Below are positions 44,717-44,851 of a DNA stretch of 64,000 bases, piece after piece. Made by a program: the position numbers and the translations under genes. The stretch lies in contig CAVYML010000009.1 of NCBI GenBank assembly GCA_963769605.1, forward strand, positions 1,419,041-1,483,040. The letters run 5' to 3'. Numbering within the stretch: position 1 is the stretch's first letter; each line of letters opens with the position of its first letter. Origin of the DNA: Ignavibacteriota bacterium (lineage in GTDB: Bacteria; Bacteroidota; Ignavibacteria; UBA10030). The notes beneath the pieces are model-generated. The model was not told the DNA's origin and made no database searches. It saw only the letters and a program-made list of their open reading frames with translations.

Positions 44717-44851
44717 AAACTAACTAACTAACTAACTAACTAACTAACTAACTAACTAACTAACTAACTAACTAACTAACTAACTAACTAACTAACTAAC
44801 TAACTAACTAACTAACTAACTAACTAACTAACTAACTAACTAACTAACTAA
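44717..44851. repeat. Perfect tetranucleotide microsatellite (AACT)n, about 33 copies (about 134 bp)
   Basis: Read directly. It is intergenic, between the TonB receptor stop (44696) and the start of the T9SS-secreted protein gene (44880). Confidence 0.97.

Follow-up and report, generated by a model that had tools for sequence, protein, structure and literature searches.

The locus lies in the window (the whole 64-kb stretch of DNA analyzed), where a perfect AACT microsatellite was found between a gene for a TonB-dependent receptor and a gene for a secreted protein of 731 amino acids. The features needed for the following analysis, with the source of each assignment in parentheses, were these.

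40755-41492, + strand: gene for a GntR/FCD-family regulator, at the head of a uronate/pectin cluster (domain searches)
41636-44696, + strand: TonB-dependent receptor gene with CarboxypepD_reg, Plug and beta-barrel domains, the upstream cistron (Pfam, NCBIfam)
44697-44717, + strand: left spacer from the receptor stop to the tract, opening with a second in-frame stop (TGA) and variable among lineages (sequence, alignment A5)
44718-44851, + strand: perfect tetranucleotide microsatellite (AACT)33.5, non-coding (TRF, sequence, folding energy)
44852-44879, + strand: right spacer TCAATTCATATCAGGTAAGGAGTGCATC, kept in every orthologous lineage and holding the Shine-Dalgarno sequence (sequence, alignment)
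44880-47075, + strand: gene for the 731-aa secreted protein, the downstream cistron (domain, homology and fold searches)
47102-47145, + strand: hairpin (stem of 20 pairs, then a T-rich tail), directly 3' of the beta-helix gene and before a kduD-like gene (consensus scan)

A single period-4 array was called by TRF, with 33.5 copies, 100% matches, 0% indels and a score of 268. It spans 134 bp, has a base composition of 25% C and 0% G, and starts 21 nt past the TAA stop codon (44694-44696) of the receptor ORF. The first-pass annotation had placed its start at 44717, which is one base early (TRF gives 44718), while the tract itself was found to be real and the distance of 28 nt from its end to the ATG at 44880 was as the annotation had given it. 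The Shine-Dalgarno sequence AAGGAG lies within these 28 nt at 44868-44873, with the ATG 6 nt further on. A 16-mer search tolerating up to 2 mismatches returned 31 overlapping matches, every one within the tract, compared to 0.01 expected from shuffles, and no second AACT tract was found by this search in the 64-kb window. Stop codons are present in all six frames of the tract (TAA in the three + frames and TAG in the three − frames), which is a direct consequence of the repeat sequence. The earlier observation of stops in the three + frames was therefore true of the sequence, but the insulation of the downstream gene that was proposed from it accounts for none of the expansion, since the receptor has its own TAA-TGA and the seed of 2-2.5 units described below already stops all three frames.

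The assignment of the upstream gene to a TonB-dependent receptor, made earlier from the letters alone, was supported by domain matches in both Pfam and NCBIfam. The 731-aa product of the downstream gene was found to consist of a signal peptide-like N terminus, a right-handed beta-helix, one Ig-like choice-of-anchor-D domain and a T9SS type A-like C-terminal domain. Its N-terminal 520 residues were modeled with confidence as a right-handed beta-helix (pLDDT 86, pTM 0.89), and the best matches of this model among solved structures were PL6 alginate lyases, the RbmB polysaccharide lyase and pectate lyases, all weak matches (E of about 1e-3, TM of 0.2-0.35). By sequence, the protein matched solved structures only in its Ig and FlgD-like C-terminal regions; the lyase-like beta-helix became visible only through the comparison of folds. 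The C-terminal domain carries the motif YPNPFNPSTTI and scored 20.2 bits against TIGR04183, just under the cutoff of 23, and homologs of the protein carry PF18962. The earlier description of the product as a T9SS-secreted beta-helix protein was deemed fair in view of the beta-helix model, the YPNPFNPSTTI domain and the PF18962 of the homologs. From its predicted fold and its genomic context, the protein is a putative lyase or depolymerase. The near-identical MAG is labelled "Bacteroidota bacterium" at NCBI, and a 58%-identical homolog was found in an Ignavibacteriales MAG. The closest orthologs are 829-831 aa long and have two choice-of-anchor-D/ASH domains versus one here, the difference in length being in-frame and about 300 nt around 46586-46758; more distant single-domain homologs exist as well. 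The uronate/pectin cluster headed by the regulator lies entirely on the + strand and extends to about 63858. Past the 731-aa protein it encodes a KduD-like SDR, a KDPG aldolase, KduI, a BT3233-like protein, an MFS transporter and PfkB kinases, and it also holds a 6-phosphogluconate dehydrogenase, two GH28 enzymes and one GH88 enzyme.

The origin of the tract was deduced from orthologous loci, which were found via close homologs of the 731-aa protein together with the junction pattern. In these loci the receptor gene is directly upstream and the gap between receptor and beta-helix genes is only 53-66 nt. At the same site as the tract, three orthologous lineages (72-81% protein identity) carry a seed, CTAACTAAC(TAA), of 9-11 nt or 2-2.5 units. 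The gap was found to carry ...CCAACTAACTAATCAAYTCATATCAGTTAAGGAG... in L002, L004 and L006 (81% protein identity), ...TCTAACTAACTAATCAACTCATATCAGTTAAGGAG... in L003 and L005 (80%) and ...CTAACTAACCGATTAATT...CAGGTAAGGAG... in the more distant L137-L140 (72%), the short state being AACTAACTAA in L002/L004/L006 and L003/L005 and CTAACTAAC in the outgroup L137. To the right of the seed, the sequence is conserved in all orthologous loci, the Shine-Dalgarno region included (alignment A5). Longer than chance and non-coding, the tract thus derives from a short seed at the same site, and the presence of that seed in three orthologous lineages implies that it expanded in place. By parsimony over these lineages, the ancestral state was short, and the lineage of the window gained about 31 units at this site.

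No exact-protein match was found for the 731-aa protein, a 305-aa receptor fragment, P0121 or the KduD-like protein; other assemblies of the strain were reached through exact-protein look-ups on neighboring genes. The same-site tract was present in three further contigs of the strain: L133, L127/L128/L135 and, in part, L129. These assemblies are near-identical, with 0-8 SNPs in 9-13 kb of flanks, and the copy number was 29.5 in L133, 33.5 in the window and 39.5 in L127, all in perfect arrays and all taken from assembly consensus sequences rather than from reads. Over 12.9 kb, L133 (ENA ERZ25039466, a contig of 136.6 kb) differs from the window by 2 SNPs and one indel, and this sole indel is 16 bp of the tract, which leaves 29.5 perfect copies by TRF. 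L127/L128/L135 (ENA ERZ25039473, a contig of 16.2 kb) differ from the window by few SNPs and by single-base insertions, and the tract of L127 is 24 bp longer than that of the window, giving 39.5 perfect copies. L129 (short-read MAG GCA_049288255.1) is the same as the window over 11 kb save for a single C at 42430; its contig breaks off 107 bp inside the tract, and the partner contig L001 begins 160 bp past it. The tract lengths therefore range from 118 to 158 bp and differ by whole 4-nt units, and tract length is almost the only substantial difference at this locus among the near-identical genomes. Length differences in whole units between perfect arrays support slipped-strand hypermutability, of which they are the signature. 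The hypermutability proposed earlier, and the comparison of copy number suggested with it, were in this way upheld between near-identical assemblies. The three full tract lengths come from assemblies that look long-read, as we infer from their contig names and sizes. Several single-base insertions are present in L127, so that consensus error could contribute to the length difference; simple consensus error is argued against by L133, which otherwise agrees exactly with the window.

Several trivial origins of the tract were considered and rejected. An assembly artifact was rejected on the ground that the tract is found at one site in four independent contigs and has grown from a conserved natural seed, and the same two facts were held against a synthetic six-frame stop linker (TAACTAACTAA-type cassettes, which occur as artificial stop linkers in the literature). 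A chimeric join at low-complexity sequence was rejected because the left and right flanks are both syntenic with the orthologous loci. Decay of the locus, as a reason for the tract being tolerated, was also considered in connection with an extra C at 42430, which splits the receptor into two ORFs in the window (41636-42553 and 42264-44696). The same 305-aa first receptor ORF is carried by L133, while the extra C is absent in L127/L128, L129 and the Logan contig L131, where the receptor is intact and 1012-1019 aa long where complete. Either the population is polymorphic for a null allele, or the extra C is a consensus error that has recurred. Decay was weakened by the absence of this frameshift from three other assemblies of the strain, and weakened further by the 731-aa length of the downstream protein, which was also found in the more distant homologs P0005 and P0010.

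The position of the tract relative to possible signals was addressed by a consensus scan for promoters and terminators over 40200-47300. With an E. coli-type consensus, which may not be that of the host, no sigma-70-like promoter was found on the + strand in 44697-44879, and the scan found no terminator-like site in the same interval. The Bacteroidota promoter motif TAnnTTTG was not seen in the gap when the sequence was read by eye. The earlier placement of the tract in a promoter region is not supported, given these results together with the five orthologous loci in which the genes are 53-66 nt apart, and the conserved Shine-Dalgarno region that occupies the 28 nt between the tract and the ATG. 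From the conserved short gap, the lack of promoter and terminator and the filling of the 28 nt, it was deduced that the tract most likely sits in the intercistronic spacer of an operon, with the receptor and beta-helix genes presumably co-transcribed. The tract extends this spacer from about 55 nt to 167-207 nt and leaves the Shine-Dalgarno sequence and the ATG of the beta-helix gene untouched. Switching by promoter spacing or by reading frame, as the first-pass annotation had proposed, was likewise not borne out: the two classic ON/OFF mechanisms are inapplicable because the tract is intergenic, outside any reading frame, and at 118-158 bp is too long for a −35/−10 spacer. From the receptor start to the next gene, the hairpin at 47102-47145 is the only terminator-like site. 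This points to a transcription unit of two genes or to attenuation ahead of the kduD-like gene; the hairpin itself could be a terminator or an attenuator.

The tract folded alone gave 0 kcal/mol. In a context of 281 nt it was unpaired in both the minimum-free-energy and the centroid structures, and the region folded worse than its shuffles (z = +2.2). A hairpin having the repeat as an arm, as in the hmw1A case discussed below, was rejected on the basis of these structures. A search of the whole window against Rfam gave no family that reached the gathering score, and in 44500-45000 there was no match at E ≤ 1.

The occurrence of similar tracts elsewhere was surveyed by scanning one genome per prokaryotic species for (AACT)8, which gave at least 120 loci. 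The survey set comprised, among the matches listed, 127 tracts of (AACT)≥8 in 107 genomes, with genes taken from naive ORF calls. The median length of the listed tracts was 52 bp, and only two were longer than 134 bp, those of Flavobacterium ginsenosidimutans (191 bp, complete genome) and Pedobacter arcticus (861 bp). Many of the tracts end at contig edges at lengths such as 55, 77 and about 127, which are typical assembler k-mer sizes, and the lengths of these tracts are therefore lower bounds. That a bacterial genome with such a tract would be extraordinary, as stated earlier, was only partly right: the scan gave at least 120 (AACT)8 loci, and just 2 of the 127 listed tracts exceed 134 bp. 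Bacteroidota accounted for 60 of the 107 genomes (56%) among the matches listed, and several listed genomes have two or three AACT tracts apiece. By the naive ORF calls, 105 gene 3' ends and 58 gene 5' ends were adjacent to the 127 listed tracts, with 16 convergent and 5 divergent gaps, and a strand bias was absent (29 sense-upstream and 29 antisense-upstream). The 57 listed genes whose start adjoins a tract include those for DnaK, phosphofructokinase, ATP synthase gamma, OTCase, catalase and peroxiredoxins; no common function was found among them, and only two were TonB-dependent receptors. Among the matches listed, the (AACT)n class therefore appears to behave as intergenic microsatellites that are tolerated and tend to be absent from regions bearing promoters, and seems unlike a regulatory device aimed at surface proteins.

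Some further features of the survey set were recorded. About 29 of the 127 listed tracts begin or end in the last codons of an adjoining ORF, so that the repeat provides the stop codon of that ORF. Many listed tracts are flanked by degenerate AACC, AAAC, GACT and TCTA repeats and form compound microsatellites. In Flavobacterium spp. (L033, L084, L017, L010, L068 and L118), AACT tracts were found in long ORF-free gaps, with A-rich flanks that are partly homologous across loci and species (51-186 nt, 77-88% identity); this homology suggests a dispersed non-coding element carrying the AACT tract in Flavobacterium. The longest listed tract (L066:2944-3804, Pedobacter arcticus A12 scaffold3), an 861-bp perfect array, is either real or a scaffolding artifact. 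In one MAG contig of a public assembly (L125:1-40), an untrimmed Nextera adapter, AGATGTGTATAAGAGACAG, was found just before the AACT tract.

Tetranucleotide SSR contingency loci are known from Haemophilus influenzae and Neisseria, where lic1 carries CAAT and mod carries AGTC/AGCC repeats (PMC2651432, PMC11868660). Like these, the window tract is perfect, is far above the slippage threshold, varies in copy number in near-clonal genomes and has neighbor genes with envelope or secreted functions. The Haemophilus and Neisseria tracts, however, are located in the 5' coding region (frame ON/OFF) or between promoter elements, whereas the window tract is non-coding and no promoter context was seen; furthermore, their hosts are host-adapted pathogens, while the host here is a free-living, environmental, uncultured member of the Bacteroidota. 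For hmw1A of H. influenzae, expression falls with the length of (ATCTTTC)n, and a long hairpin is cleaved by RNase III (PMC12721329). The (AGAT)n repeat of uspA2 in Moraxella catarrhalis is a transcribed leader repeat that tunes expression (as summarized in PMC4679880). The window repeat resembles both in being variable, untranslated and a short distance upstream of the start of a gene for a surface or secreted protein. Unlike hmw1A it forms no structure, and unlike either it separates two cistrons instead of following a mapped promoter. In nadA of Neisseria meningitidis, a tetranucleotide tract upstream of the promoter acts via the spacing of distal promoter elements (PMC2791445).

Intergenic arrays of the heptamer TAACTGA have been described in Beggiatoaceae, cyanobacteria and a few Bacteroidetes; they usually lie in forward orientation, 1-43 nt upstream of the start codon, with as many as 43 copies in some Bacteroidetes, and certain lineages have many such arrays in one genome (PMC4679880). 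The window tract is similar in that its unit is stop-rich and contains TAACT in repetition, and in that it is forward and 28 nt upstream of a start codon. It differs in its unit, AACT, which is 4 nt rather than 7, and the forward upstream-of-start bias of the TAACTGA arrays is absent from the 127 listed AACT tracts (29 sense versus 29 antisense, with 3' ends adjoined 105 times). Neither shared flanks nor a transfer mechanism in common with the TAACTGA arrays was evident. It was reported by Huang and Mrazek that repeats whose units have four or more nucleotides are not subject to suppression in the genomes of prokaryotes, that loops of at least 4 nt are poorly corrected by methyl-directed mismatch repair, which is a possible reason for this, and that the presence of long SSRs is correlated with a reliance on eukaryotic hosts (PMC4060949). 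The window array agrees with the long prokaryotic SSRs of that study in being far above chance length and in its sporadic phylogenetic distribution; it departs from the host-dependence trend, as it and most of the listed AACT tracts are found in environmental Bacteroidota. The tract was assigned to the bacterial hypermutable SSRs, in a setting that is unusual for its free-living Bacteroidota host, its intercistronic position and its large copy number.

The explanation that we favor, with moderate confidence, is that the tract is a near-neutral, hypermutable intercistronic spacer that arose by recent, slippage-driven expansion and has little or a graded effect on the downstream gene. The seed CTAACTAAC(TAA) in the short untranslated spacer would have passed the slippage threshold and expanded in place, and slippage by whole 4-nt units during replication would have kept the array perfect while making it highly mutable. 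Loops of 4 nt are reported to undergo poor correction by methyl-directed mismatch repair (PMC4060949). Whole-unit slippage together with such poorly corrected loops could account for near-identical members of the population carrying 29.5, 33.5 or 39.5 units. The array would most likely be transcribed as unstructured (AACU)n within a bicistronic mRNA. Since the receptor stops, the Shine-Dalgarno sequence and the ATG are left intact, the probable consequence is none or a small quantitative one rather than ON/OFF switching. Both slippage as the mechanism and the near-neutrality of the tract are what we infer from the compared sequences. Against near-neutrality, a quantitative effect of a spacer longer by 124-148 nt is possible via mRNA stability, Rho loading or ribosome recruitment, and by analogy a surface receptor and a secreted enzyme are the kinds of gene that would typically be under contingency loci.

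A second account is a graded contingency locus, a "volume control" in which the length of the (AACU)n spacer would set the expression of the beta-helix gene, and perhaps of further genes, relative to that of the receptor. This was regarded as the main alternative, though a tentative one and distinctly less probable than the near-neutral spacer. Possible routes are polarity through Rho loading on ribosome-free, G-free and unstructured RNA, mRNA decay, and recruitment of ribosomal protein S1, and slippage would then yield heritable diversity of expression in the population. Several points fit this proposal: copy number varies among near-clonal genomes; the 134 nt of the tract are unstructured as RNA, at 25% C and 0% G; the adjoining genes encode a surface receptor and an enzyme that is secreted; and hmw1A (PMC12721329) and uspA2 (as summarized in PMC4679880) are leader-repeat precedents. 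On the other hand, the Shine-Dalgarno sequence and ATG are unchanged and are not paired by the tract, no hairpin involves the repeat, unlike in hmw1A, and the 127 listed tracts have no preference for 5' ends, for the sense orientation or for surface-protein genes. The repeat is also without the YC dinucleotide, the preferred ligand of the Rho primary site. An extension of this proposal, in which (AACT)n arrays throughout Bacteroidota would be untranslated spacers whose length, heritable yet quick to mutate, determines how strongly neighboring cistrons are expressed relative to each other, is speculative and was given little credence.

Two further alternatives bear on the promoter and on the reality of the length differences. 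It is improbable, though it must be weighed, that the tract is real but stable and that 29.5, 33.5 and 39.5 are products of long-read consensus or assembly errors in a low-complexity region. This would be in keeping with the three gene-breaking single-base insertions of L127 that are absent from the window and from the overlapping L001, with 9 gap openings over 13.2 kb between L128 and the window, and with the failure of the short-read assembly to cross the tract. It is opposed by L133, which equals the window over 12.9 kb save for 2 SNPs and the 16-bp indel, and by the three tracts being 100% perfect and differing by exact multiples of 4; differences of 4 and 6 units also seem, in our own judgement, to be above the expected consensus error. 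The model of the first-pass annotation, phase variation in which changes in unit number alter the promoter geometry or the phasing of an activator or repressor in the manner of nadA, was considered very unlikely. The nearness of the tract to the ATG (28 nt), the GntR-family regulator encoded at the head of the cluster and the nadA precedent (PMC2791445) speak for it. They are outweighed by the lack of a + strand promoter-like hexamer pair in or around the gap by the E. coli-type consensus (which may not be that of the host), by the conserved Shine-Dalgarno region that leaves no room in the 28 nt for a −10 element plus leader, by the ortholog gap of 53-66 nt without a terminator, which is typical of co-transcription, and by a tract length of 118-158 bp that is far too long for a −35/−10 spacer.

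On the speculative Bacteroidota-wide reading given above, such arrays would possibly be G-free, unstructured entry sites for Rho or RNases, and slippage in this organism could diversify the amount of secreted beta-helix lyase per cell relative to the receptor, a form of bet-hedging or "public-goods dosage." If copy number does tune the ratio of receptor to secreted enzyme, contingency-locus biology would extend to free-living glycan degraders. A few host-adapted pathogens are the hosts in which hypermutable simple repeats have been well studied, and environmental bacteria have received hardly any such study. The locus provides a clean natural example, since public assemblies of one uncultured strain display the seed, its expanded form and three lengths that coexist. 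In practical terms, short-read assemblies break at the tract, and a length taken from any one assembly is not to be regarded as fixed. No description of AACT/AGTT repeats in Flavobacterium or Bacteroidetes was found in the searchable literature; the recurrence of (AACT)n, with more than half of the listed genomes belonging to Bacteroidota, is apparently undescribed there and may deserve a systematic survey.

Elsewhere in the window, three overlapping + strand ORFs in 32928-35531 (32928-33467, 33404-33985 and 33888-35531) could be one frameshift-broken gene, and no Pfam match was found for the largest of them. A 12-nt tandem repeat, TAAATGATGCTG, with 6.3 copies and 95% matches is present at 13833-13908 inside the ORF 12584-14119 and is probably coding. 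An imperfect heptamer array of about 7 copies of AATTCTK is present at 30952-31000, downstream of lon; 3 nt separate its end from the start codon (ATG) of a dnaX-like ORF (31004-32776).
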